Origin: a phage
Length of the DNA: 64,000 bases
NCBI GenBank assembly: GCA_011839185.1
Contig: GCA_011839185.1_3918.1
Reading direction: 5' to 3' (one strand)
Position numbers and translations under genes: made by a program. The notes under the pieces were generated by a model. That model saw only the letters and a program-made list of their open reading frames with translations. It did no database searches and was not told the DNA's origin. Below are positions 7,354 through 55,317 of this stretch, one piece after another; the stretch's first letter is position 1; each line of letters starts with the position of its first letter.

Positions 7354-7554
7354 ATGTTTAAGATATCAAAAGCGTTGATATACATACTCCACATTCTAAT
7401 CTTCTTCTTTGGTGTTAGCGTTATGGTATGGGGTTTTTCAGACCCACAATGGAGTTTCTCATATCATGGTCAGATGGATTTATGGCCATGCTTCAAACCA
7501 TTTTTAGGATTAGCTATAGCATTCAGTACATTACCAACTAAGGTGAAATTATGA
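7354..7554 (+). CDS. small membrane protein
   Basis: 66 aa with a hydrophobic N-terminal segment. Confidence 0.3.
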   Translation: MFKISKALIYILHILIFFFGVSVMVWGFSDPQWSFSYHGQMDLWPCFKPFLGLAIAFSTLPTKVKL

Positions 7555-12811: not shown

Positions 12812-13147
12812 ATGAAAATCAAAGAAATGAACATCAATATTGTCTTAGAAGAACGCTGGGAGAACATCAAGAAGCCTGAAAATGGTCATAAGTTCCTCAA
12901 CAAAATCTTAGTAGCAGCTAAAGAAGAACTGACTGGCAAGATTGCAGCAGCAGTCACAATAAAAGTTTGTGTAAAAGGTCTTCCAGACAACCACCAATTT
13001 GCGCTTGACGAGTTTAAAAAAAGCTTCTACAATCCAAACAAACAGATGCTTGAAAGTAACTTTGCAGTATCTACAAGTATCGTCCATGACAGAAGCTTTA
13101 TCCTTTACAAAAATATGAGAGGTGAGTCATGCAAGCATATTGGATAG
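12812..13147 (+). CDS. hypothetical protein
   Basis: ORF track 111 aa. Confidence 0.45.
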   Translation: MKIKEMNINIVLEERWENIKKPENGHKFLNKILVAAKEELTGKIAAAVTIKVCVKGLPDNHQFALDEFKKSFYNPNKQMLESNFAVSTSIVHDRSFILYKNMRGESCKHIG

Positions 13148-13305
13148 AAATTTTACTGTCACTTGGTAGCGTAGCAGTATTTGTTTACCTTCTTTGCAAG
13201 TACTATGCAGAGTACAAGAAGTGTGATTACTGCAATGGGGAAGGGTATACAAGAGCAGGTTGTTGCCCTATGTGTGGTGGTTCTGGTAAAATGTTTAATA
13301 AGTAA
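13129..13305 (+). CDS. small membrane protein with C-terminal zinc ribbon (58 aa, absent from the ORF track)
   Basis: ATG at 13129 to TAA at 13303-13305; hydrophobic N-terminus then CDYC...CPMC. Confidence 0.3.
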   Translation: MQAYWIEILLSLGSVAVFVYLLCKYYAEYKKCDYCNGEGYTRAGCCPMCGGSGKMFNK

Positions 13306-13333: not shown

Positions 13334-15700
13334 ATGCGCATGGTAAATGACCACGCAGAAGTGATTAAGAGTTCAACTTCTTTAGAGACGTCTCAAGCAC
13401 AGATTACAATGACACCTGAGATGTTCAGCCTTTTGAGTTCTGGTGTATATACCTTTAAAGAAAGGGCAGTGATTCGTGAACTGTCATGTAACGCAGTAGA
13501 TGCTCAGAAAGAAGCTGGAAAAGAGAACATTCCGTTCCATGTGCATTTACCTACTCGTTTTGAGCCTTACTTTGAAGTTCGTGATTTTGGAACTGGATTG
13601 ACTCATGATAAAGTTATGAGTTTGTACCTAAACTACGGGGCTTCTACGAAGAATGACTCTAATGACTACATTGGTGCAATGGGTATCGGCTCAAAATCCC
13701 CATTTGCAATTGCTCAGTCATTCACAGTATCTAGCTATGTTGATGGTGTTGTTAATAAGTACTCTGTTTATCTTGAGAATGGTATCCCTCAAGTAACTAA
13801 GCTGACCACTAACCCAACAAAAGAACCCAATGGTTTAGCTGTACGTGTGGCAGTTGCTGACCACCGTATCTCAAAGTTCTTTGAAGAAGCTGGAAATGTG
13901 TACTCATACTTCACTGTAAAACCAGAAAGTAATATTGAGTACGACGATGTATTAGCAGATATGAACGTCATTGCCCGTGAAGAAGGTGTTTATGATGCCA
14001 TGATTCATAAGCAAAGCTGGCGTTCTAGTGGTAACAGGACAGAGTTTAATGTGGTGATGGGTAATATTGCCTATCCAGTGAACATGGAAGCATTACTTGG
14101 TGATGATTTCTTCAAAGTCTTGCCAGAGTTTTTCCGTAGGAGCGTAGACCTTGTAAACATCTACATGCCTATTGGTTCAGTTGCTATAGCAGCTTCTCGT
14201 GAAGCATTGCAGATGAATGATACGACAAAAAATGTTATCATCGAGGCTACCAAAAAGATAACTGAAGCAATTACAAAGGATGTTATCAAGAAAGTTAATA
14301 GCCAACCTACACTCATGGATGCTGCACAGGCTTATGCAGAGTTACGTTTGAACTCACGAGAGATGTTTAATGCTGTGTGTCCAAAGCTAGAGTGGGGAGG
14401 CGTTAAGCTTGATTCTCTGGAAGAAGAATTGTTAAACATTCGTCGTGGAATTATCTACGCAGAAGACGGCTCAGTCATTTATGAACGTGACGGTAAAGGC
14501 AATATTAAGGTTGATAGGAACGGGAACAATATCCCTAAAGTAGATTATCTTTATAACCCAGTTGCTTATGTCAAGTTCAACTCTTTAGAGAGTAAGATTC
14601 GTGCAACAGCACTTTCCTACACTCAAGAGGCAAGTATGTTCAATATCTTTGGCGCAATGCGTAAAAGCCAAATTGAACAGTTTTTGTTCGTGATTAATGA
14701 CCGTCGCAATAAAAATGGTACTGAGAAGACTGTAGGCCGCAATCAGATTCTGCGTGGTGCATGTCGAGACTACGCCAGTGAGTCAAGTCTGTTTCACAGA
14801 TATAATGGTATTGTGTTTGTATTCTCGACTGAAAAAGAGTTAGACGACCTAATCAACCTACACAAACTTGATAAAAGCTTGTTAAAGATTGTGAAGATGT
14901 CTGATAAGGAACATCACTATCAGCGTAAAGAAGCTGTAAGAGGTGTTGTAAAACTCTGGAAAGCTGTTCCAGCAGAAGGTGTAGCTTCCTATAAAGAGGT
15001 TTCAGAGGACTTAGATACGATTGAAGAGCCTCAGCTTTATATTAAGGCAGTAGGCGACACAGTTGATGGCGAATGTTTTTGCTCATCTCCAGAAGATGTA
15101 GCTAAGTCAGTTGCCAATGTCATTGGAAAGAAAGTATATGTTTTCCGAAAAGCAAATTGGAAAAAGATACCAGAAGACTGGATTGAAGTAGATGAGAAGC
15201 TCTTGAATGACAGCTTAACTGATGTTCACTGGATTAACCATAACAGGTATATGACACGTATCTATATGAATGGTGTCCTTGACCTTACAAGCAGTTGGAT
15301 TATTGCCAGAAACTTTACGTTCAATAACAGGAAGATTTCTCGTGGCTATTGTTATTCGCGGGATACAAACAAAACTATCTTCTTAGAAGGTAATGAAGAT
15401 GCTGTAGAGGCAATGTTTGGTAAAATCCAATACGTTGCTGCACCATTTGCATACACTTACATTATTAGTGTGTTGCAAGATTTGAAAAGGTGTCTTGATA
15501 ATGATACAAAGCTTTACAAGAAAATTAAGAAAGCTGGTGACCGCATGGTCATTAAGGTGACAAACTACCTTTCAAAAAGAAAACAAGAAAACTTCTTGCT
15601 TTCTCATTTAGATTGGAATAAAGTGTCACCCATCGAAGTGAGTAAGTTCTTAGGCTTTGATGTGAAGTGTGTTCCAGAAGGGACTACAATTTACGATTAA
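13334..15700 (+). CDS. rIIA: rIIA-like protein with GHKL-type ATPase N-terminal domain
   Basis: 788 aa; ELSCNAVDA, DFGTG and GAMGIGSKS motifs of a histidine-kinase-like ATPase fold; followed by an rIIB-sized gene. Confidence 0.7.
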   Translation: MRMVNDHAEVIKSSTSLETSQAQITMTPEMFSLLSSGVYTFKERAVIRELSCNAVDAQKEAGKENIPFHVHLPTRFEPYFEVRDFGTGLTHDKVMSLYLNYGASTKNDSNDYIGAMGIGSKSPFAIAQSFTVSSYVDGVVNKYSVYLENGIPQVTKLTTNPTKEPNGLAVRVAVADHRISKFFEEAGNVYSYFTVKPESNIEYDDVLADMNVIAREEGVYDAMIHKQSWRSSGNRTEFNVVMGNIAYPVNMEALLGDDFFKVLPEFFRRSVDLVNIYMPIGSVAIAASREALQMNDTTKNVIIEATKKITEAITKDVIKKVNSQPTLMDAAQAYAELRLNSREMFNAVCPKLEWGGVKLDSLEEELLNIRRGIIYAEDGSVIYERDGKGNIKVDRNGNNIPKVDYLYNPVAYVKFNSLESKIRATALSYTQEASMFNIFGAMRKSQIEQFLFVINDRRNKNGTEKTVGRNQILRGACRDYASESSLFHRYNGIVFVFSTEKELDDLINLHKLDKSLLKIVKMSDKEHHYQRKEAVRGVVKLWKAVPAEGVASYKEVSEDLDTIEEPQLYIKAVGDTVDGECFCSSPEDVAKSVANVIGKKVYVFRKANWKKIPEDWIEVDEKLLNDSLTDVHWINHNRYMTRIYMNGVLDLTSSWIIARNFTFNNRKISRGYCYSRDTNKTIFLEGNEDAVEAMFGKIQYVAAPFAYTYIISVLQDLKRCLDNDTKLYKKIKKAGDRMVIKVTNYLSKRKQENFLLSHLDWNKVSPIEVSKFLGFDVKCVPEGTTIYD

Positions 15701-15779: not shown

Positions 15780-16889
15780 ATGACTACTAAAACTAAAGCA
15801 CAGATTGACGCAGAAATTTACAAACTGGTTAAAGAAGGTAAGCTGACTAAAACAGCTATTGCACAGAAATTTAATACTTCAACCCGTTCAGTTGGTCGTG
15901 CTGTAGAGCGTCATGAAGCAACCTTAAAAGGGAATAAGAAGGCGACTTCTACACCAGCTACGAAAACTTTGAAGCAAGTTGCTAAGACCTTTAAGAAGAA
16001 AGCTGGCAAACCAGTTGAAAAGGCTGTTAAAGAGTCTGTACAGAAAGCTCCGGTGAATAAACTGCATGAAGCTATGCAGAAAGATGACAAGATTGAGTAC
16101 ATGATTACTGGTGACTCTGTAATTATGACTTACGGTTCAGAATCTGAAATTGTTGAGTCTACTCATCCGAACTATCAAGATATTGTAGTTCATGTTGTGA
16201 AAGGTGAGTTTAAGAAAGCCTTTGAACTGATGAACATTCGTAAGTCTATCGAAAACTTCACTCAGGGTGCTATCACAATCAAAGGTGACAAGCTATTCTA
16301 CGGTGCTGTTGAGATGCGTTCTACTCTGGTTGACCGTATTCTTCACATGATGAAGACTGGGGATAAAGGTTTTGAACGCCTTGTGATGTTCTTCGAAAAA
16401 CTGATGGAAAACCCATCTAAAGATTCTGTAGAACAACTTTGGGGCTTCGTATCTCACCTTGATGTTGAAATTGATGAAGAAGGTTACATCATTGGTTGGA
16501 AGAAAGTATCTACTCGTGAAGGCAAGTTGGTTGATTCTCACACCTACAGAGTGCCTAATGATTTGGGTAACATTGTAGAAATGCCACGTTGGATGGTTGA
16601 TAATAACCGTAACGTGACTTGCTCTCAAGGTCTTCATGTTGGTGCTTGGGATTATGTTCGTTGTTTCTCAGGTGATACAATTCTGAAGGTTCGTGTCCAT
16701 CCACGAGATGTTGTATCTGTTCCAACTGATTACAACGATATGAAGATGCGCTCATCTCGTTATGAAGTTGCAGCAATCGTTGATAATCAACGTAAAGTGT
16801 TGAAAGCATGGGATGGCAAGACTGAAGCTTTACATGTCATCGTTGGTACTGCTGGTGAACTCATCTCTCAGCGTAAACGTGAAATCTAA
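15780..16889 (+). CDS. rIIB: rIIB-like protein
   Basis: 369 aa immediately downstream of the rIIA-like gene; assignment by position and size only. Confidence 0.5.
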   Translation: MTTKTKAQIDAEIYKLVKEGKLTKTAIAQKFNTSTRSVGRAVERHEATLKGNKKATSTPATKTLKQVAKTFKKKAGKPVEKAVKESVQKAPVNKLHEAMQKDDKIEYMITGDSVIMTYGSESEIVESTHPNYQDIVVHVVKGEFKKAFELMNIRKSIENFTQGAITIKGDKLFYGAVEMRSTLVDRILHMMKTGDKGFERLVMFFEKLMENPSKDSVEQLWGFVSHLDVEIDEEGYIIGWKKVSTREGKLVDSHTYRVPNDLGNIVEMPRWMVDNNRNVTCSQGLHVGAWDYVRCFSGDTILKVRVHPRDVVSVPTDYNDMKMRSSRYEVAAIVDNQRKVLKAWDGKTEALHVIVGTAGELISQRKREI

Positions 16890-16906
16890 TAAGTAATTTC
16901 TTAAAA

Positions 16907-16928
16907 GGCTGCTTCGGCGGCCTTTTTT
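16907..16928 (+). terminator. rho-independent terminator
   Basis: GC-rich hairpin around TTCG followed by TTTTTT. Confidence 0.55.
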
Positions 16929-16989
16929 ATTTGTATTTTGTGCAGAGTGCTGTATAATTGTTGTCACGATAAACTAAACAGGAGAACCA

Positions 16990-17538
16990 ATGAAGAAATT
17001 GATTCTAGGTTTGTGCTTAATGTTTACAGCACACTTATCTTATGCAGTTGACTGCCCAGAGCTATCAATTAGCCAAAAAGTGAACATGTTAAAAGCTTAC
17101 CAGTATGGTGAGAATAACATGGGTAAAGGTTGGGGTATCACTCTAGCAGCTATAGCCTTACAAGAGTCAGAGTTAGGTCTGAAGGTAGAAAATAAAAAGA
17201 CCCATGACTATGGTATCTTCCAGAATCACTTGAAGACTGTTGTAAAGCGTAACAAAATTAGTCCTAATGTTGCTAAAAAGAAACTCTTAAAAGATTTTGA
17301 CTATGCCGCAAAAGAAACACATAAAGAGCTTGAGTTTTGGACGAAGGTACATGGTCAGCCAAAGTCAAAGAAGACTTTACAAAAAGTTTTAGCATCATAT
17401 AATGCTGGGTATTCGTACAAAACCCCTAAAGCTAAGAAATACTCTCAAGATGTCTATAACAATATGAAAGTTATCGCTCAATGTGAATTTGCAACAAACA
17501 TTTCTAAGGTAAATCATGAAAAAATTAAGAAAGTCTGA
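16990..17538 (+). CDS. secreted lytic transglycosylase / lysozyme-like protein
   Basis: 182 aa; N-terminal signal-peptide-like segment; ALQESELG ... DYGIFQ resembles the SLT catalytic region. Confidence 0.45.
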   Translation: MKKLILGLCLMFTAHLSYAVDCPELSISQKVNMLKAYQYGENNMGKGWGITLAAIALQESELGLKVENKKTHDYGIFQNHLKTVVKRNKISPNVAKKKLLKDFDYAAKETHKELEFWTKVHGQPKSKKTLQKVLASYNAGYSYKTPKAKKYSQDVYNNMKVIAQCEFATNISKVNHEKIKKV

Positions 17539-18211
17539 TGAAGTCCTGTGCCACGCTTATGACTTGCATCCTCATGAGTTAGGTCTTGATTCCTGTGTAT
17601 GGACTCCAGAACAGTGCAGGGATTTTGAAGACACTGCAAGAGAAGTTGTATGTTCACTGGAAGAGTTCCACACATCAGAACCAATTGTGAACGTTGTGGA
17701 CAAAGAGACTGGACAAACTATAGGTGTAAGGCGTGATAGTTTAGTCATAGTCAATAAAGACCTTGTAGAAAAAGGTAACCTCATCTTAGCAGATATTGAT
17801 GGTGTTCTTACAAATTTTAATCACGAAGATTGCTCAACGGAATTGACTGATGGGTCATTCTCACAGTACACTAATCTTCTTGACTCTGTAAGAGCAAAAC
17901 CAACGTATGTTTTTAGTATTATTGATGCAATTGCTAATCATGCTGCCATTGGACTCTTGACAGCGAGAGGTGAATCTCAGAGAATACCTACTGAGATGTT
18001 TTTAAGGCATAACATAGAGCATGATTACATGCTTTTTATGCGTGGTTTTGGAACTAACTCTATAAGTGCAGAAAGTTTAAAAGTGAGGATGATTCAGTCT
18101 TGCATTCTTCCTTATTTTAATATAGTATGCTTTATAGAAGATACAGAGAAGAATGTTCAGAAGGTAAACAGAATCCTTCCACACATTAAAACCATGTTAG
18201 TTAAACATTGA
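17516..18211 (+). CDS. hypothetical protein, possible HAD-family phosphatase
   Basis: 231 aa; LADIDGVLTNF resembles the HAD DxDG motif; weak. Confidence 0.35.
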   Translation: MKKLRKSDEVLCHAYDLHPHELGLDSCVWTPEQCRDFEDTAREVVCSLEEFHTSEPIVNVVDKETGQTIGVRRDSLVIVNKDLVEKGNLILADIDGVLTNFNHEDCSTELTDGSFSQYTNLLDSVRAKPTYVFSIIDAIANHAAIGLLTARGESQRIPTEMFLRHNIEHDYMLFMRGFGTNSISAESLKVRMIQSCILPYFNIVCFIEDTEKNVQKVNRILPHIKTMLVKH

Positions 18212-18687
18212 GAGAAAAACTTATGAACAATATCATTACGGTAGCACTGGACGATACGGCAAACAAATCTGAAGTAGTTCGTAAAATGATTCAAGGTAAC
18301 TTTGAAGGTAAAATTTTCCGTGCTGTTAATGTAAAAGCTGATGGCAGTATTCGTGAATACCGTGCATTGTTGAATGTTAAAAAGCACGTAAAAGGTGCTG
18401 GTTCAACGACTGCACACAAAGAAAACCTGATGACTATCTATGATATGGGTAAGGCTTCAGAGTTAGGTGCTGAAGGTATCGTTAAAGAAGGTGCTCCGTA
18501 TCGCTCTTTCAATCTGGAAACTACTCTTATGCTTTCCTTTACGAGTGGTTCTAAAACAATCACTTATCTCTTTACTGATGCTGCAACGGTATCTGCTATT
18601 AAGGATAGCACTGTCAAAGCTGGCGTAGTTGCTGCTGCAAAAGCTTCTTCGATGGCTGCAAATATCCTTGCTAAAGTCCTCGGTTAA
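18208..18687 (+). CDS. hypothetical protein
   Basis: 159 aa; followed by a strong terminator. Confidence 0.45.
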   Translation: MREKLMNNIITVALDDTANKSEVVRKMIQGNFEGKIFRAVNVKADGSIREYRALLNVKKHVKGAGSTTAHKENLMTIYDMGKASELGAEGIVKEGAPYRSFNLETTLMLSFTSGSKTITYLFTDAATVSAIKDSTVKAGVVAAAKASSMAANILAKVLG

Positions 18688-18699
18688 GGTTAAGATACA

Positions 18700-18721
18700 G
18701 GCTCCTTCGGGAGCCTTTTTC
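18700..18721 (+). terminator. rho-independent terminator
   Basis: GGCTCC-TTCG-GGAGCC followed by TTTTT. Confidence 0.65.
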
Positions 18722-18739
18722 ATTTCAGGAGATTGTTAA

Positions 18740-19087
18740 ATGACATTTAAAGAGTTCTGTCAAGCTACTTTCATAATTGTTTTCTTAGTTGGGGCAGGTG
18801 TCTGGGGAGGATACTCTTACAGAGACTACCAAGTTGCTGAAACTGAGCTAAACAATGAGAAGCTGATAAGTGTTGCTAAAGATGCTTATCAGGAAGGATT
18901 AGCTACACTGAGCACCAATTACAAAAATGATTTGAAAGATGTGCTTGCTAAGAATAAGCACACAAAAGAGGTACTAACGTATGAAAAAACTAAGCCAGAG
19001 TTTTATAATGTTTGTGTTACTGATAATTATGTCAGGGTGTTCAACGAACAAAGTGAACAGTACATTCAAAAACTCCCAAGTAAGTGA
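18740..19087 (+). CDS. inner-membrane spanin-like protein
   Basis: 115 aa; single N-terminal TM segment then charged periplasmic-type region; 3' end overlaps a lipoprotein gene in another frame. Confidence 0.4.
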   Translation: MTFKEFCQATFIIVFLVGAGVWGGYSYRDYQVAETELNNEKLISVAKDAYQEGLATLSTNYKNDLKDVLAKNKHTKEVLTYEKTKPEFYNVCVTDNYVRVFNEQSEQYIQKLPSK

Positions 19088-19250
19088 GAGTGATAAGTAC
19101 ACTCAAGAAGATTCAAGATTCACTATCAAAGGTAATACTGGTAGTGATGTGGCAGCAGCCCTTGAGTTCTATCGTGATGGATTTTACCAGTGCACAATCA
19201 AAGCTAATAACCTTATTGATATGATTTTATTAGGAAATAAACAGCAATGA
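18981..19250 (+). CDS. outer-membrane lipoprotein, spanin-like
   Basis: 89 aa; signal peptide with lipobox-like IMSGC; starts inside the 3' end of the preceding gene. Confidence 0.4.
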   Translation: MKKLSQSFIMFVLLIIMSGCSTNKVNSTFKNSQVSESDKYTQEDSRFTIKGNTGSDVAAALEFYRDGFYQCTIKANNLIDMILLGNKQQ

Positions 19251-20240: not shown

Positions 20241-21026
20241 ATGGGTATTGTAAAAATCATCAATGGCGATATCTTTGCCGCATTTGATAAAGGTAAGTTT
20301 GACATTATTGGTCACGGTTGCAACTGTATGAATTTAATGGGTGCAGGTATCGCTGACAAGATTTCTAAACTTTACCCAAAAGCATATGAGACAGATACAG
20401 AAGTCTATCTATATGCAGGTGGCATAGGTCACAAACCCTGTGAAAATTTACTGGGTAATTTCTCTGTAGCACGTTTAAAACAAGGTCGTATAGCTAACCT
20501 TTACACTCAGCTTAAGACTGGTAAAGATGCCCGATACAGTGCTTTAGAGTCATCTTTGAAACAGCTTAACAGATACTGTGAAGTTAATCAGTTGAAGAAA
20601 GTTGGTTTACCTATGATTGGTGCAGGTATAGGTGGGCTGGACCCTCAAGCTGTCACAGTTATCATCAATCAGGTGATGAAGAGTGTAGATGTTTATCTGT
20701 ATGTCTATGAAGGAGAGATGTACCACAAGTTACGCTCAGGTTGGAAGAACTACTGTGAACCAGAATACTTTGCAGGTGTAGCAGTGTTCACGGATAACGC
20801 AGTTACCCTCTTCAGACGAAGAAAAGGTAAGATACATCAAAGTAACCCTCCGGTTGAAAGGATGTCTCTAAGTAACGCTCTAGTTACCCACCTGTCGAAG
20901 AGCAATCACAGAATAGCTGTGACATTTGGTAGTGATGCAGATGCTTACATCTATGCAAGAACTGATGAGGATATCGAGGCAATTTTCTCATCACCGGAAG
21001 TTACCTTCTTAGACGCAAAGAACTAA
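20241..21026 (+). CDS. macro-domain-like protein (ADP-ribose binding or processing)
   Basis: 261 aa; GHGCNCMNLMGAGIADKI resembles the macro-domain Gly-rich loop; not confirmed. Confidence 0.4.
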   Translation: MGIVKIINGDIFAAFDKGKFDIIGHGCNCMNLMGAGIADKISKLYPKAYETDTEVYLYAGGIGHKPCENLLGNFSVARLKQGRIANLYTQLKTGKDARYSALESSLKQLNRYCEVNQLKKVGLPMIGAGIGGLDPQAVTVIINQVMKSVDVYLYVYEGEMYHKLRSGWKNYCEPEYFAGVAVFTDNAVTLFRRRKGKIHQSNPPVERMSLSNALVTHLSKSNHRIAVTFGSDADAYIYARTDEDIEAIFSSPEVTFLDAKN

Positions 21027-22860: not shown

Positions 22861-23157
22861 ATGAAACTATCAAATAAAGTCCGTGAAAATCTAAGCAAGT
22901 TACTTAATAAAATTGATTTCATTGAAACATCAAGGAATAGTCATGATGTTATGGAATGGTTACACGGAAAAATCAAAGGCCGTCGTGTAGTGATTTGCTT
23001 ATGGAATAGTTGCAGGGAGTATAAAAAACCTGTATTGCAAGTCAATATTTACGATGATACTTTTAAAAGCCCTGTAAAGTCTAAAAGCGATTTATTAGAA
23101 TCTTATGAGATAACTGTAAGTGGCAAAGTATCACGTAAAGAGGAAACACCATGTTAA
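22861..23157 (+). CDS. small early protein
   Basis: 98 aa behind a type-I cassette. Confidence 0.55.
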   Translation: MKLSNKVRENLSKLLNKIDFIETSRNSHDVMEWLHGKIKGRRVVICLWNSCREYKKPVLQVNIYDDTFKSPVKSKSDLLESYEITVSGKVSRKEETPC

Positions 23158-23483
23158 TGACTGGTATCACTGCAATCATTGCCATTTTCGCGCTATATAA
23201 GGCATATAAAGCCTATAATCTAGCAAATAAGGCAATCACACAGCAGGTTAGCAATAACCTTGTAGAAAGCTTTCTAGGACGTCTCAGTGATGAGCAAATA
23301 AAGCGGCTAGAGATGAGCTTCAGATATAAAGCCAAAACCTATCAGATAAGTGACATCTTCAAAGATGATTTTCAGTTAGTTGATGATTATAATTCTCTGA
23401 TAAATGCTTTAAACATCAGTGACTTGAAAGGCTATCATGCTGTAATTGTTCAAGAGTTGAGCAAACGAAAACAAAATTCTTGA
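23151..23483 (+). CDS. small membrane-anchored protein
   Basis: 110 aa; hydrophobic N-terminus; start overlaps the upstream stop. Confidence 0.45.
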   Translation: MLMTGITAIIAIFALYKAYKAYNLANKAITQQVSNNLVESFLGRLSDEQIKRLEMSFRYKAKTYQISDIFKDDFQLVDDYNSLINALNISDLKGYHAVIVQELSKRKQNS

Positions 23484-31152: not shown

Positions 31153-31656
31153 CTATAATTGTAGGTTGCATTCTTTACTTACCTCTTCAAGTTTAACCTC
31201 AGAGTCCTTAAGTCGTTTCTTATGAACTCTGAATCTTATTAGTGAGATGATGATACCAGCTAAAGGAACAGCATACAAGTACCAGATATCATGTAGCTTT
31301 GCAGTAATCTGTGTAATTGTCAAATCTTGAGCTATGTAGCTGATTGCTGATACTGCTAGTAATGTTGCTAAGAAAAACACTAGTATCATTGCAATATTCA
31401 TACAACCTCTTGCATGGTACTCATGCTTAATACACTTATTCTTTTCGTCAACAACCCTGTTGTAGTCATTTGTAAAGTCTCTGTAGAAAGCTTTCAAGTA
31501 TTCTTTATTGTAGCCTTCAAAGCAACCTGTACCGTACCAATAATCACCACCAAAATGTGCTATGATACCAGTATCTCCGTTTGGTTTGGTTACTCTTAGA
31601 GAGACATGATGACCAGTCTTCTGGTAATCTATCTTATATCTTTCTTCGTAAATCAT
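31153..31656 (-). CDS. membrane protein (two predicted C-terminal TM segments)
   Basis: 167 aa with hydrophobic stretches MILVFFLATLLAVSAI and YAVPLAGIIISLI. Confidence 0.5.
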   Translation of the reverse strand: MIYEERYKIDYQKTGHHVSLRVTKPNGDTGIIAHFGGDYWYGTGCFEGYNKEYLKAFYRDFTNDYNRVVDEKNKCIKHEYHARGCMNIAMILVFFLATLLAVSAISYIAQDLTITQITAKLHDIWYLYAVPLAGIIISLIRFRVHKKRLKDSEVKLEEVSKECNLQL

Positions 31657-34004: not shown

Positions 34005-34469
34005 TTACTTTGGATATACACTGTCAAGATAAATGTCAGCTTCCATTCTACGTCTGTTTTTCAGACCGTTTGAAGTGACCTTCTTACCTTTGACTGTAAC
34101 CTTGTTCCACCACTGCATAGCTTCTGCACAACCTACCTTATTACCAGCATTGTGGCGCTTGATAAATGTGGAATCCTGCATAGCTGTGATACCGATGTTG
34201 TATGTTTCACTTACAAGTGCATCGAACTCATTCTGAGTAGTTGGAACCTTGATAGCTTTGTTCACTGCTGCAACAAACTTCTCAACATCCGCGAGAAGAT
34301 ACTGTTCAGCTTGTTCAGCGGTGATTTTCATTCCCATCTTAACAGGTTTTCCGTCAATACGGATTGTACCATACCCGATTGTTGGGATTCCGGCAGAGTC
34401 TTCGTAAGCCTCTAACTCCAGACCTTCGAAGAACTTAATAGCTTCTAAACCTTTTCTTGAGAGTTGCAT
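34005..34469 (-). CDS. endolysin, phage lysozyme (glycoside hydrolase family 24 type)
   Basis: 154 aa; LEAYEDSAGIPTIGYG and NEFDALVSETYNIG motifs typical of T4/P22-type lysozymes. Confidence 0.85.
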   Translation of the reverse strand: MQLSRKGLEAIKFFEGLELEAYEDSAGIPTIGYGTIRIDGKPVKMGMKITAEQAEQYLLADVEKFVAAVNKAIKVPTTQNEFDALVSETYNIGITAMQDSTFIKRHNAGNKVGCAEAMQWWNKVTVKGKKVTSNGLKNRRRMEADIYLDSVYPK

Positions 34470-42539: not shown

Positions 42540-42615
42540 GCAGGATTAGTTCAAATGGATAGAGCAACAGTCTACGAAGCTGTTAGTAGGGGTTCGAATC
42601 CCTTATCCTGCGCCA
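42540..42615 (+). tRNA. tRNA-Arg (anticodon ACG)
   Basis: acceptor GCAGGAT/ATCCTGC, arm ACAGT-CTACGAA-GCTGT, T-loop TTCGAAT, encoded CCA. Confidence 0.75.
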
Positions 42616-42633: not shown

Positions 42634-42876
42634 ATGCAAACATTAATCGTCGTTGAACATGAAAATCCCAACAGTATTGAGTTTGTAAGGGTTCCCACTA
42701 TAGATACTCACATTTTCTTGAAAGTCGGATGGGAATGCGACCCGATAAAAGTAGGAAAATTTCTTGGTCATTACTTTGGTGGAAGACAATTTAAAAGTAT
42801 CAATTTTGAGACAGTATTACCAGAAAACTCAGAAACAGACAATAATACTTACCTCCTTACGAGGATTAGACAATGA
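42634..42876 (+). CDS. hypothetical protein inside the tRNA array
   Basis: ORF track 80 aa; does not overlap any tRNA. Confidence 0.45.
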   Translation: MQTLIVVEHENPNSIEFVRVPTIDTHIFLKVGWECDPIKVGKFLGHYFGGRQFKSINFETVLPENSETDNNTYLLTRIRQ

Positions 42877-43430
42877 GATACTTAAAATATGTTTCATGGA
42901 TTTTCTTAGCTTTGTTAGAACCATTTGCAGCAACCCTAGCAGTCATCTTAGCACCTTTCGTAGTTCCATTCTACAGTGAGAAGAAAGGGCATCTACCTTT
43001 TGGATTCAGATGGATGGAGACCTATGACAACCCTATTGATGGTGACAAAGGCCACGTTGAGAGATGGGCTAAGATTAGAAAGATTGGTAAGCTTGGTGTC
43101 TACATGCAGAGAGTTGGATGGCTCTGGAGAAACAAAGCTTATAACTTCTCTTACCATGTATTAGGAAGAGATGTAAAAGACGTTACTAAGTGGAAAGGTA
43201 ATATCAACGTAAGTTCTAACCCTGAAGATAATCAAACAGGTTATCTCCTAATGTGGAATAGCAATGCTTGGGGATTATTTGCTTTTATCCCATCAATTAA
43301 AGTCTTTGGTAAACAGTTTTACTGGAGAATTTATATTGGATGGAAACTAAAAAGTGTTGTCCCAGAAGAAAGAGCATTCTCAAGGGAAAGAGTTATGTTG
43401 GCATTCTTTATTCATCCACTGAGAAAGTAA
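42873..43430 (+). CDS. hypothetical protein with N-terminal hydrophobic segment
   Basis: 185 aa; Trp/aromatic-rich; start overlaps the upstream stop. Confidence 0.5.
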   Translation: MRYLKYVSWIFLALLEPFAATLAVILAPFVVPFYSEKKGHLPFGFRWMETYDNPIDGDKGHVERWAKIRKIGKLGVYMQRVGWLWRNKAYNFSYHVLGRDVKDVTKWKGNINVSSNPEDNQTGYLLMWNSNAWGLFAFIPSIKVFGKQFYWRIYIGWKLKSVVPEERAFSRERVMLAFFIHPLRK

Positions 43431-43438
43431 AGATTTAA

Positions 43439-43514
43439 AGGGGATTAGTTTACAAGGTTAAAACCTCGGTCTTTGAAATCGAAGAAGTTGGTTCAATTCC
43501 AACATCCCCCGCCA
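43439..43514 (+). tRNA. tRNA-Gln (anticodon TTG)
   Basis: acceptor AGGGGAT/ATCCCCC with weak 1-72 pair, arm TCGGT-CTTTGAA-ATCGA, T-arm GTTGGTTCAATTCCAAC, encoded CCA. Confidence 0.7.
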
Positions 43515-53390: not shown

Positions 53391-53964
53391 AAAAGGTCTA
53401 GTTAGAACCTTAGTGGATGTTATTGGTCACAGACTAGCTCGTGATAAAAATAATAGACCAAACGTAATTAGAGCTTACCCTTCTGATAACTCAAATGACA
53501 AAGGTTTAAAACCTGACCAGCCATTTATTACCGTATATTGTCAAGATGCTGCAACACCTTATGGTTGGGTTCTTGATAAGTTTGTTGAGGATGATGTAGT
53601 TTGCTATAGAATTGCTTTTCAAATTCCAGTATTAATTACGGTAAATGGTAAAGGTGCTCACAGTATTATGCTTGAGCTTAAACAACGATTAGAGATGAGT
53701 TCAGTCAGAGATTTAATTCTTGAAGAGACAGGAGCTACAGTACTAGACACTGGAGCAATCCCAAATGATTATACTTATCTCAATACAGATTTCGAAAATT
53801 CTGCGCCTCTTGTTGTAACTCTTGTAAAAAATTCAGTCCTGAAAGATGAACGTGGAAGTATTATTGAGCGTGTCATTGTTGATGGTGAGTTGGTTTATGA
53901 AGAAGGACAAGAGCCACCAGAATATACTATCCATCTAGATGTAGACTCCAAAGGGGTAAAATAA
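53365..53964 (+). CDS. hypothetical tail completion-type protein
   Basis: ORF track 199 aa. Confidence 0.45.
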   Translation: MQLETAELEKGLVRTLVDVIGHRLARDKNNRPNVIRAYPSDNSNDKGLKPDQPFITVYCQDAATPYGWVLDKFVEDDVVCYRIAFQIPVLITVNGKGAHSIMLELKQRLEMSSVRDLILEETGATVLDTGAIPNDYTYLNTDFENSAPLVVTLVKNSVLKDERGSIIERVIVDGELVYEEGQEPPEYTIHLDVDSKGVK

Positions 53965-55317
53965 ATGTGGAATCCAATTGTTAATGTAGATATTACATTG
54001 AACACCGCAGGAACTACAAGAGAAGGTTTTGGTTTACCACTATTCTTAGCTTCAACAGATAACTTTGAAGAAAGAGTACGTGGCTACACTTCCTTAACTG
54101 AAGTTGCTGAAGATTTCGATGAAAATTCTGCTGCATATAAGGCTGCTAAACAACTTTGGAGTCAGACTCCTAAAGTAACTCAGCTTTATATTGGTAGACG
54201 TGCTATGCAGTACACTGTATCAATTCCTGATGAGGTTGCTGAGAGCACCGACTATTCTTTAACTGTAGCTGTGAGCGGTGGAGTTTCTCAGCCATTCCAG
54301 TACACTTCACAGTCAGAAGATACTGCTGAGAAGGTGCTACAGCAGCTTAAAACTCAGATTGAAGCAGAACCTTCTGTAAAAGACCTTGTTACTGTCAATG
54401 TAACTGGTGCTGGCGGTTCAGCAACAATGGTAATCACCAAAGCTGGTGTCAACGACTTCGTGAAGGTTACTACTACAGCACAAACAGTGTCAATTGCAAG
54501 CACAACTGCTGACACAGCATCGACTGCTCTGGCAGCTATTGAAGCGTATTCAACTGACTGGTATTTCATTGCAGCAGAAGACAGAACTCAACAGTTTGTC
54601 TTAGCAATGGCTTCTGAGATTCAAGCTCGTAAGAAGATTTTCTTTACAGCTAACTCCGATGTAGCAGCACTGCAAGGTACAGAATTAGCGAGTGCAAATG
54701 ATGTTCCAGCACAGCTTGCTAAGAATCAGTACACTCGTACAGTTTGCTTGTGGCATCACACAGCAGCAGAAGACTATCCAGAAATGGCTTATATTGCTTA
54801 TGGTGCTCCGTATGATGCAGGTTCAATTGCTTGGGGTAACGCACAGTTAACTGGTGTAGCTGCTTCTCTACAGCCATCTAACCAGAGACCTCTGACAAGT
54901 ATTCAGAAGTCAGCTTTAGATGCACGTCACTGTAACTTTATTGACCTTGATGGTGGTGTTCCAGTGGTTCGTAGAGGGATTACTTCTGGTGGGGAATGGA
55001 TTGATATCGTCCGTGGTGTTGACTGGTTAGAATCAGACCTGAAAACTTCTCTGAGAGACTTGCTAATTAACCAGAAGGGTGGTAAGATTACTTATGATGA
55101 TACTGGTATTACCCGTATTCGTCAAGTCATTGAAACCTCTCTGCAAAGAGCAGTCAACAGAAACTTCCTGTCATCTTACACAGTTAATGTTCCTAAAGCC
55201 TCTCAAGTTGCTTTGGCAGACAAGAAAGCTCGTATCCTGAAAGATGTTACCTTCGCAGGTATCTTAGCAGGGGCTATCTTGGATGTTGACTTGAAAGGTA
55301 CAGTGGCTTACGAATAA
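53965..55317 (+). CDS. tail sheath protein
   Basis: 450 aa directly upstream of a ~150-aa tube-sized gene and the tape measure gene; by order and size. Confidence 0.55.
   Translation: MWNPIVNVDITLNTAGTTREGFGLPLFLASTDNFEERVRGYTSLTEVAEDFDENSAAYKAAKQLWSQTPKVTQLYIGRRAMQYTVSIPDEVAESTDYSLTVAVSGGVSQPFQYTSQSEDTAEKVLQQLKTQIEAEPSVKDLVTVNVTGAGGSATMVITKAGVNDFVKVTTTAQTVSIASTTADTASTALAAIEAYSTDWYFIAAEDRTQQFVLAMASEIQARKKIFFTANSDVAALQGTELASANDVPAQLAKNQYTRTVCLWHHTAAEDYPEMAYIAYGAPYDAGSIAWGNAQLTGVAASLQPSNQRPLTSIQKSALDARHCNFIDLDGGVPVVRRGITSGGEWIDIVRGVDWLESDLKTSLRDLLINQKGGKITYDDTGITRIRQVIETSLQRAVNRNFLSSYTVNVPKASQVALADKKARILKDVTFAGILAGAILDVDLKGTVAYE

Follow-up and report, generated by a model that had tools for sequence, protein, structure and literature searches.

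A predicted spanin pair and a putatively exported Vs.1-like protein in a Felix O1-like phage: two known envelope functions 1.2 kb apart

Introduction

The phage DNA analysed here, a stretch of 64,000 nucleotides (assembly GCA_011839185.1, contig GCA_011839185.1_3918.1; the whole stretch is called the window below), carries three plus-strand open reading frames (ORFs) whose predicted products would act on the cell envelope. They are a gene for a secreted SLT-like protein (16990-17538) and, downstream of it, two overlapping genes with the features of an inner-membrane and an outer-membrane spanin (i-spanin, 18740-19087; o-spanin, 18981-19250). A preliminary description of the sequence had reported these ORFs, at coordinates that proved exact, and had grouped them as an envelope-targeting cluster. 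The locus thereby raises the question of whether the three genes form one module for breaching the envelope or simply lie near each other.

By sequence identity the window is a Felixounavirus (Felix O1-like) genome, 97% identical to Escherichia phage Pr103Blw. A 3.1-kb query from the locus had this phage (vB_EcoM-Pr103Blw) as its best match (97.3%, full-length), and nearly all of the 260 phage records matched belong to Felixounavirus or other Ounavirinae. The evidence presented below says that the SLT-like gene and the spanin pair are not one functional cluster and share only a proximity of 1.2 kb. We assign a probability of roughly 85% to the reading that they are two independent, already described envelope functions of a Felix O1-like, T4-style lytic phage that came to lie 1.2 kb apart by chance. 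The spanin pair, the Vs.1 homologue and the scattered layout of the lysis genes are all known already, and nothing here is new in that sense. The pair is present in SpaninDB and in many GenBank records and leaves little matter for discovery; the practical value of the analysis lies in annotation (an o-spanin start set internally, an o-spanin left uncalled, a Vs.1 homologue labelled 'endoribonuclease'). In biological terms it bears on the part that the widespread, putatively exported Vs.1-type muramidase plays in infection.

Two overlapping genes encode a predicted two-component spanin

The i-spanin gene (18740-19087, plus strand) encodes a protein of 115 amino acids with one hydrophobic segment at residues ~5-25 (Kyte-Doolittle value over 19 residues, KD19, 1.75) and none elsewhere; this single N-terminal transmembrane (TM) segment leaves the bulk of the protein on its C-terminal side, as a putative periplasmic domain. 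The protein matches the Rz-like spanin family phrog_1152 at 8e-42 and contains a conserved C-terminal block, E82..F88.N90.C92....Y97...F101-N102. The o-spanin gene (18981-19250, plus strand), whose ATG is preceded by AAGAGG 9 nt upstream, encodes an 89-aa prolipoprotein with the N-terminus MKKLSQSFIMFVLLIIMSG|C20-S-T and the lipobox IMSG|C20. The predicted mature protein has 70 residues, none of them proline, and conserved C-terminal positions C71..N76.L78. The residue at +2 is Ser21, not Asp, which predicts sorting to the outer membrane. Its best PHROG match is phrog_4180, and the match to the Rz-like family phrog_456 is weak (7.9e-5). A Pfam search with both spanins gave sub-threshold noise only, and an NCBIfam search with six proteins of the locus gave nothing meaningful.

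The preliminary description had proposed prediction of TM and lipoprotein signals as a check on the pair. Here, hydropathy and pattern rules were applied to ORFs from any start codon in all six frames of the 64-kb window, requiring K/R in the n-region, an uncharged hydrophobic core, a lipobox, a Cys at residue 15-30 and an ORF length of at least 50 aa. The check bore out the assignment: the i-spanin has one TM segment, and the o-spanin ORF is the sole lipoprotein-signal ORF in 64 kb, whereas 30 Markov-resampled controls averaged 0.1 such ORFs and never exceeded 2. This uniqueness, together with the dual-frame constraint described below and conservation down to 26% identity, rules out the lipoprotein ORF as a chance ORF.

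The o-spanin start codon lies 107 nt ahead of the i-spanin stop codon in the +1 frame, generating an overlapped architecture in which frame 0 of the shared DNA (18981-19087, plus strand) specifies the C-terminus of the i-spanin and frame +1 the signal peptide and lipobox of the o-spanin. This segment is under dual-frame constraint. Relative to Citrobacter phage Moogle, 10 of its 107 positions are substituted (9.3%), compared with 59/241 (24.5%) and 41/163 (25.2%) in the single-coding flanks (Fisher p = 3.3e-4), such that the overlap diverges 2.6 times more slowly than its flanks; relative to phage Mushroom the corresponding counts are 1/107 in the overlap and 30/404 in the rest of the pair (p = 0.010). 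Moreover, 68 nt of the overlap (window 18980-19047) match the DNA of Kuravirus SU10 (record L005, 1501-1568) at 79-84%, while the i-spanin proteins of the window and of kuraviruses share 27-37% identity overall. The 68-nt match is probably a case of extreme conservation of the dual-coding segment owing to its dual-frame constraint; recombination is a possible, lesser candidate for its origin.

Homologues of the i-spanin were detected by tblastn in 403 phage records and of the o-spanin in 311, and six lineages were aligned: the window, Moogle, a Hafnia phage, the Erwinia Kolesnikvirus phiEa21-4, SU10 and the P2-like Yersinia phage vB_YenM_324. In all six the lipoprotein ORF begins within the 3' end of the TM-protein ORF in a different frame, and the N-terminal hydrophobic segment of the i-spanin is aligned. 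Ten positions of the i-spanin (G24, L37, L65, E82, F88, N90, C92, Y97, F101, N102) and eight of the o-spanin (L13, C20, S21, T22, G54, C71, N76, L78) are invariant among the six. Each partner thus keeps one periplasmic Cys in its conserved C-terminal block, C92 in the i-spanin and C71 in the o-spanin, which agrees with Kongari et al (2018; PMC6139136), who count a periplasmic Cys in 507 of 528 two-component spanins and place such cysteines close to the heterotypic interface. The YenM_324 pair directly follows the holin and endolysin genes in a canonical cassette, the strongest argument from gene context that the pair acts in lysis.

Taken as an overlapped two-component spanin, an assignment that the sequence features support, the genes belong to a family already described. 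Curated GenBank records annotate an i-spanin and an o-spanin of identical geometry in the phages JLBYU32, Moogle and Mushroom, the last two being Center for Phage Technology entries. Kongari et al (2018; PMC6139136) place Felix01, WV8, Moogle, Mushroom, EC6, UAB_phi87 and FSL SP-010/012/107 in the 'JH2' family, one of two-component spanins with overlapped genes, and its i-spanin family also takes in phiEco32, KBNP1711 and NJ01; this link to phiEco32-like kuraviruses is reproduced here. The Felix O1 genome paper lists the genes at equivalent coordinates as ORF 6 (a 115-aa membrane protein, phiEco32-like) and ORF 7 (89 aa). With identical lengths (115 and 89 aa) and an identical 107-nt +1 overlap, gp6 and gp7 are the same genes as the window pair. 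Over the 511-nt pair, nucleotide identity is 93.9% to Mushroom and 79.5% to Moogle, and protein identity to Moogle is 77% for the i-spanin and 81% for the o-spanin. There is no substantive difference between the window spanins and the JH2 family, of which they are another allele only. Our searches extend the published list for the o-spanin family by the P2-like Yersinia phage and by Erwinia and Hafnia Ounavirinae.

The pair had been described beforehand as a classical i-spanin/o-spanin arrangement. The TM segment, the lipobox, the overlap, the curated records and SpaninDB all uphold the spanin part of that statement, but 'classical' is a loose term, since the lambda genes are embedded and those of the window are overlapped in the manner of P2. 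As in lambda Rz/Rz1, a single piece of DNA would encode a type-II inner-membrane protein in one frame and an outer-membrane lipoprotein in another, periplasmic cysteines are present in both partners, and the pair would presumably disrupt the outer membrane once the murein has been degraded. However, lambda Rz1 lies wholly inside Rz; mature Rz1 has 40 aa with 10 prolines and no secondary structure, in contrast to 70 aa and no proline in the window o-spanin; and the lambda genes lie within a lysis cassette, whereas the window spanins lie outside any cassette. Searches of Pfam, PHROG and NCBIfam with the window proteins gave no match to a lambda-type spanin family.

The setting of the pair resembles that of T4 pseT.3/pseT.2, where the spanin genes are likewise remote from e and t, with one small gene between them and the polynucleotide kinase (PNK) gene, in a phage that likewise has a soluble endolysin, a class III one-TM holin (predicted in the window) and both rIIA and rIIB. 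The T4 genes differ from the window pair in their separated architecture and in their cysteines, PseT.3 having none and PseT.2 two, compared with one in each window spanin. Homology of the window spanins to PseT.3/PseT.2 was considered and rejected (E = 18 for the i-spanin; 0.033 for the o-spanin, through its signal peptide only). The T4 resemblance of the spanins is organizational, without sequence similarity.

Database records treat the o-spanin unevenly. In those of Pr103Blw, fjerdesal and Hafnia phage SarahDanielle its start is set at an internal ATG (window 19029, 'MSGC...'; annotated at L002 4030-4251, L003 4030-4251 and L007 3784-3984), as a result of which the signal peptide is lost from the annotated product, and in many other GenBank records the gene is uncalled or 'hypothetical'. 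This agrees with the annotation problems tabulated for such spanins by Kongari et al (2018; PMC6139136).

The putatively secreted SLT-like protein is a homologue of T4 Vs.1

The SLT-like gene (16990-17538, plus strand) has a Shine-Dalgarno sequence, AGGAGA, 5 nt upstream and encodes a protein of 182 amino acids that is homologous to T4 Vs.1 and to Felix O1 gp3. Its N-terminus, MKKLILGLCLMFTAHLSYA|VD, has a KK n-region, a hydrophobic core of 13 residues and small amino acids at -3/-1, and by hydropathy and the -3,-1 rule residues 1-19 (16990-17046, plus strand) form a signal peptide. The protein contains the motifs QES...YGIFQ...SYNAGY. In an alignment of 15 homologues, reaching down to 29% identity, six positions (E59, Q78, Y137, N138, G140 and Y151) do not vary, and at least 90% of the sequences keep S60, G75 and S136. 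On this alignment the conserved positions correspond to the four motifs of family-1 lytic transglycosylases, with Glu59 of the ES motif as the predicted catalytic residue. C22 and C165 co-occur across the homologues, which suggests that they probably form a disulfide and, hence, that the protein would be periplasmic.

BLASTP aligns the protein to T4 Vs.1 with 32% identity over 174 aa (E = 1e-16), and Felix O1 ORF 3 and phiEa21-4 gene 6 have long been annotated as Vs.1 homologues. Vs.1 itself has 181 aa, an N-terminal signal peptide and the same ES...FQ...YN.G motifs; it differs in lacking the extra Cys pair C22/C165 of the Felix-type proteins and in location, as vs.1 sits between regB and vs and the window gene between rIIB and the PNK-like gene described below. 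Members of the family occur in 2,129 phage records, among them those of T4-like, Vi1-like, Vibrio, Aeromonas and Acinetobacter myophages. Mushroom (L009, 33873-34421) and many T4-like records label these homologues 'endoribonuclease' ('T4 RegB-like'), apparently an error spread from the neighbouring T4 regB. Two entries, GU169904 ('Staphylococcus phage SA1') and MG065668 ('Campylobacter phage A126'), contain Felix O1-like i-spanin/SLT-like proteins at 99.5-100% identity and are most likely chimeric or contaminated.

Fold comparisons place the protein with the lysozyme-like enzymes. A single-sequence phmmer search against the Protein Data Bank (PDB) gave no match; a profile built on the family retrieved the type III secretion system lytic transglycosylase EtgA at 1.8e-4, followed by goose lysozymes, and a precomputed PF01464 match is present in the remoter homologues (P0015-17, P0019, P0020). 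An AlphaFold2 (AF2) model (predicted local distance difference test score, pLDDT, 85.9; predicted template-modelling score, pTM, 0.80) was compared by Foldseek with the PDB, where it matched g-type lysozyme, a GH23 chitinase, EtgA, Cj0843, MltE/F/D and Slt70; every one of the leading matches was a GH23 protein or a lytic transglycosylase, with probabilities of 0.9-1.0 and TM-scores of 0.45-0.54. The modelled fold is that of GH23, goose-type/SLT lysozyme-like. The claim that the locus encodes a secreted SLT-like protein is thereby upheld in its three parts, the signal peptide, the invariant ES / GxxQ / (S)YNxG / Y motifs and the GH23 fold. EtgA/IagB/IpgF-type transglycosylases (PDB 8urn) and goose-type lysozymes are, like the window protein, small (150-190 aa), Sec-exported, single-domain GH23 proteins with the Glu in an ES motif. 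The relationship to them is remote (15-20% identity, TM-score about 0.45-0.55) and there is no secretion-system partner here; the Asp that aligns with that of the EtgA YD-IGIMQ motif is present in Felix-type proteins and is not conserved family-wide.

That vs.1 resembles SLT marginally was already on record (Nolan et al, 2006), and Belin et al (2024) reported that pBAD18-vs.1 is mildly toxic and called the product an 'exported lysozyme', citing a 2009 Geneva thesis. In the accessible part of the Felix O1 virion protein study, gp3 is absent from the virion proteins. We found no literature on the role of Vs.1 during infection.

The SLT-like gene and the spanin pair lie in separate units

The preliminary description did not mention that two unrelated genes and a terminator lie between the SLT-like gene and the spanins. 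The first (17516-18211, plus strand; 231 aa; phrog_3970, 7e-135) encodes a HAD-phosphatase/'polynucleotide kinase'-like protein and overlaps the SLT-like gene by 23 nt. The second (18208-18687, plus strand; 154-159 aa; phrog_2267) is hypothetical, and its relatives start at the ATG at 18223 (Felix O1 ORF 5, 154 aa). Beyond it lies an intrinsic terminator (18699-18721, plus strand) with a 7-bp stem, a UUCG loop and a T-run that ends 18 nt short of the i-spanin start codon; its dG is -14.0 kcal/mol (z = -3.2). A second intrinsic terminator follows rIIB (16903-16932, plus strand), with a 10-bp GC-rich stem, a UUCG loop, a T-run and a dG of -14.7 kcal/mol (z = -4.7). For each of the two, 0 of 200 shuffles fold as well. 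These features suggest that the SLT-like, PNK-like and hypothetical genes form one terminator-bracketed unit and that the spanins open the next.

A candidate promoter for the first unit can be read by eye at 16930-16958 (plus strand), with a perfect -10 TATAAT (16953-16958) and a weak -35 (TTGTAT/TTTGTA); a consensus scan did not list it because its -35 matches at only 3/6 positions. The T4-type late-promoter sequence (TATAAATA) has 2 matches in the window, fewer than the average of 4.2 expected by chance, and neither is near the spanins. Transcription of the spanins may come from read-through or from an unrecognized phage promoter, a general puzzle that the Felix O1 paper raises as well.

It could be argued that the SLT-like protein and the spanins nevertheless make up a single holin-independent envelope module, in which the muramidase opens the murein locally for the spanins and the proximity of the genes has been selected. 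The three genes lie within 1.2-2.7 kb of one another across the Ounavirinae (Felixounavirus, Moogle, the Hafnia phage, phiEa21-4), the SLT-like enzyme would reach the periplasm without a holin, and Felix O1 ORFs 3 and 6 share a reverse-transcription PCR (RT-PCR) class, that of transcripts peaking at 25 min. However, this class is uninformative, as it holds ORFs 3, 4 and 6, the lysin ORF 35 and ~60 ORFs in all, and conserved gene order within one subfamily is expected from general synteny. The strong terminators bracket the SLT unit and set the spanins apart, and the number of unrelated genes between them ranges from two to five (phiEa21-4 has five there, together with two annotated terminators). 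Outside the Ounavirinae the two functions are unlinked: the homologous spanins of SU10 and YenM_324 have no nearby Vs.1 gene, and Vs.1 occurs in >2,000 phage genomes with unrelated, distant spanins, the distance between vs.1 and pseT.3/pseT.2 in T4 being 73 kb. We consider a single module unlikely. Of the earlier cluster claim, the placement of the three genes stands and the functional grouping does not. A related idea, that the Vs.1 enzyme is a holin-independent 'pre-lysis' murein-remodelling factor that aids the spanins through larger murein pores or through lysis timing, would make the conserved closeness of its gene to the spanin pair in Ounavirinae functional; it appears quite improbable. 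The preferred reading remains that of two independent functions.

Lysis genes are scattered in the window

The lysis genes do not form a contiguous cassette. The spanins are at 18.7-19.3 kb on the plus strand, the endolysin at 34.0-34.5 kb on the minus strand and the predicted holin at 42.9-43.4 kb on the plus strand. The endolysin (34005-34469, minus strand; 154 aa, soluble; ~15 kb from the spanins) matches Pfam PF00959 (Phage_lysozyme/GH24) at 4.5e-41 and phrog_7 (endolysin) at 4e-58, and its Mushroom counterpart is annotated 'endolysin', confirming the GH24 gene that had been reported on the opposite strand. The earlier conclusion that the lysis functions are split likewise holds, scattered T4-style lysis genes being a published trait of Felix O1-like phages.

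No holin family match adjoins either the SLT/spanin locus or the endolysin, as had been stated. In contrast, the small membrane ORFs that had been put forward as holin candidates (7354-7554, 23151-23483, 31153-31656) did not withstand PHROG and Pfam scans, in which neither they nor other small membrane ORFs matched a holin family. The curators' prediction lies elsewhere, at 42873-43430 (plus strand; 185 aa, one N-terminal TM segment): this protein is 95% identical to CPT_Mushroom87 ('holin'), which the Mushroom paper predicts to be a class III one-TM holin, and matches Pfam DUF7338 at 1.9e-61 and phrog_2143 ('unknown'). We found no paper mentioning DUF7338. Homology of this protein to T4 T was considered and dropped, as no similarity was found. 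The gene lies between tRNA-Arg (42540-42615) and tRNA-Gln (43439-43514), an odd location for a protein-coding lysis gene. As a separate observation, Felix O1 gp79 (53740-54105), proposed as a holin candidate in the genome paper, is a membrane protein of 121 aa with one TM segment that shares 24.6% identity with PseT.3, the T4-type i-spanin, and might be a second i-spanin-like gene in Felix O1-like phages; its homologue is expected just past the 3' end of the window.

The presence of an exported protein with a muralytic fold and an apparently intact catalytic Glu invites the alternative that the phage has in the SLT-like protein a second true endolysin, of either the signal-peptide or the SAR type, which lyses the cell with the spanins and makes the GH24 enzyme redundant. 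Over-expressed T4 Vs.1 is toxic, and some records use the annotation 'lysin'. Yet the toxicity is described as weak, and the N-terminus is that of a short, strongly hydrophobic Sec signal: a core of ~13 residues (LILGLCLMFTAHL) is followed by S-Y-A|V, which fits the -3/-1 rule (a heuristic), unlike the long, Gly/Ala-rich and weakly hydrophobic SAR segment. T4 e-minus mutants fail to lyse despite an intact vs.1, such that the family cannot replace an endolysin. Since the phage also keeps a canonical soluble GH24 endolysin, together with a predicted holin, the SLT-like enzyme is not the lysis endolysin, and a second-endolysin role is very unlikely. Limited, non-lethal cutting of peptidoglycan in an accessory function would most likely describe it.

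A model for two independent envelope functions

According to the model, whose steps are taken from the lambda and T4 paradigms, the i-spanin would sit in the inner membrane, held there by its N-terminal TM helix, and extend a largely helical domain into the periplasm. The o-spanin would leave the cytoplasm through Sec, receive its lipid at Cys20, be cut by signal peptidase II and, because the +2 residue is Ser, be sorted to the outer membrane by Lol. The two proteins would bind each other through their C-terminal domains, so that the complex spans the periplasm, and C92 and C71 presumably form homodimer disulfides as in lambda Rz/Rz1. At lysis the predicted holin would permeabilize the inner membrane and free the GH24 endolysin to degrade the murein; spanin complexes released from the murein mesh would then oligomerize and fuse the inner and outer membranes, thereby removing the last barrier to virion release. 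Independently of these events and without a holin, the Vs.1-type GH23 enzyme would reach the murein by the Sec route as a soluble periplasmic protein.

Several points weigh against this interpretation. For the SLT-like protein, the score against Pfam PF01464 (SLT) is below the gathering cut-off (19.0 vs 21.3 bits, E = 0.001), the Foldseek E-values are modest (best 6e-3, TM-score about 0.5), the sequence does not decide between a lytic transglycosylase and a hydrolytic lysozyme, and the sole experimental statement on Vs.1, in Belin et al (2024), goes back to an unpublished thesis. The signal-peptide and lipoprotein calls were made with hydropathy and pattern rules rather than with SignalP or LipoP. 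A single-sequence AF2 model of the i-spanin is all helical (H3-36, H40-71, H75-84, H86-110) at low confidence (pLDDT 48.7, pTM 0.31); it was not used as evidence, and the helical or coiled-coil character of the protein is putative. The o-spanin is atypical compared with lambda Rz1, having 70 mature residues, no proline and a probably helical C-terminus, and a sigma-70 scan of the interval from the 18699 terminator to the i-spanin start turned up no convincing promoter. Finally, the pair lies beside rIIA/rIIB in an early/middle-looking region away from the endolysin, the PHROG of the o-spanin, phrog_4180, carries the label 'unknown function', and we found no genetic test of the JH2-type family in the literature, the assignment being bioinformatic in SpaninDB as well.

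These last three points would suit the possibility that the 115-aa and 89-aa proteins are an early superinfection-exclusion or receptor-masking pair, comparable to T5 Llp or the Cor lipoproteins, encoded in the rII/accessory region. However, the proven T4 spanins are equally remote from e/t and also lie beside pseT, and in YenM_324 the homologous pair comes straight after the holin and endolysin. An exclusion lipoprotein needs no overlapping inner-membrane partner, whereas the overlapped TM protein and lipoprotein, with their C-terminal blocks and one invariant periplasmic Cys each, constitute a spanin signature. Moreover, a Gram-negative lytic phage needs a spanin, and the window contains no second candidate. 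An exclusion function therefore seems highly improbable, and a spanin role for the pair is preferred.

Neighbouring genes

The region between 13 and 21 kb of the window looks like a T4-type accessory block, with rIIA (13334-15700) and rIIB (15780-16889), followed by the SLT-like gene (the Vs.1 homologue), the PseT-like gene, the spanins and a Tk.4 macro-domain gene. The G+C content of the window is 34-43%. The similarity of the PNK-like gene product (17516-18211) to T4 PseT is weak and confined to the HAD 3'-phosphatase half (DIDGVL motif, E = 0.09), and no kinase P-loop half is evident; the name 'polynucleotide kinase' may overstate its function.

Downstream of the spanins, the gene at 20241-21026 (plus strand) encodes a macro-domain (ADP-ribose-binding/'phosphatase') protein homologous to T4 Tk.4 (34% identity, E = 3e-24), with a C-terminal extension of ~100 aa that is absent from Tk.4. 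A macro-domain gene lies just downstream of the spanins in SU10 too (L005, 1762-2202). Just upstream of rIIA, a 58-aa ORF (13129-13305, plus strand) encodes a TM segment at its N-terminus and, after it, CDYCNGEG...CCPMCGGSG, in which the CxxC...CxxC arrangement is zinc-ribbon-like, and matches phrog_3931, which bears an unknown-function label, at 5e-33. ARAGORN identified 26 tRNA genes between 39012 and 44791 (plus strand), in a cluster broken by a few ORFs.

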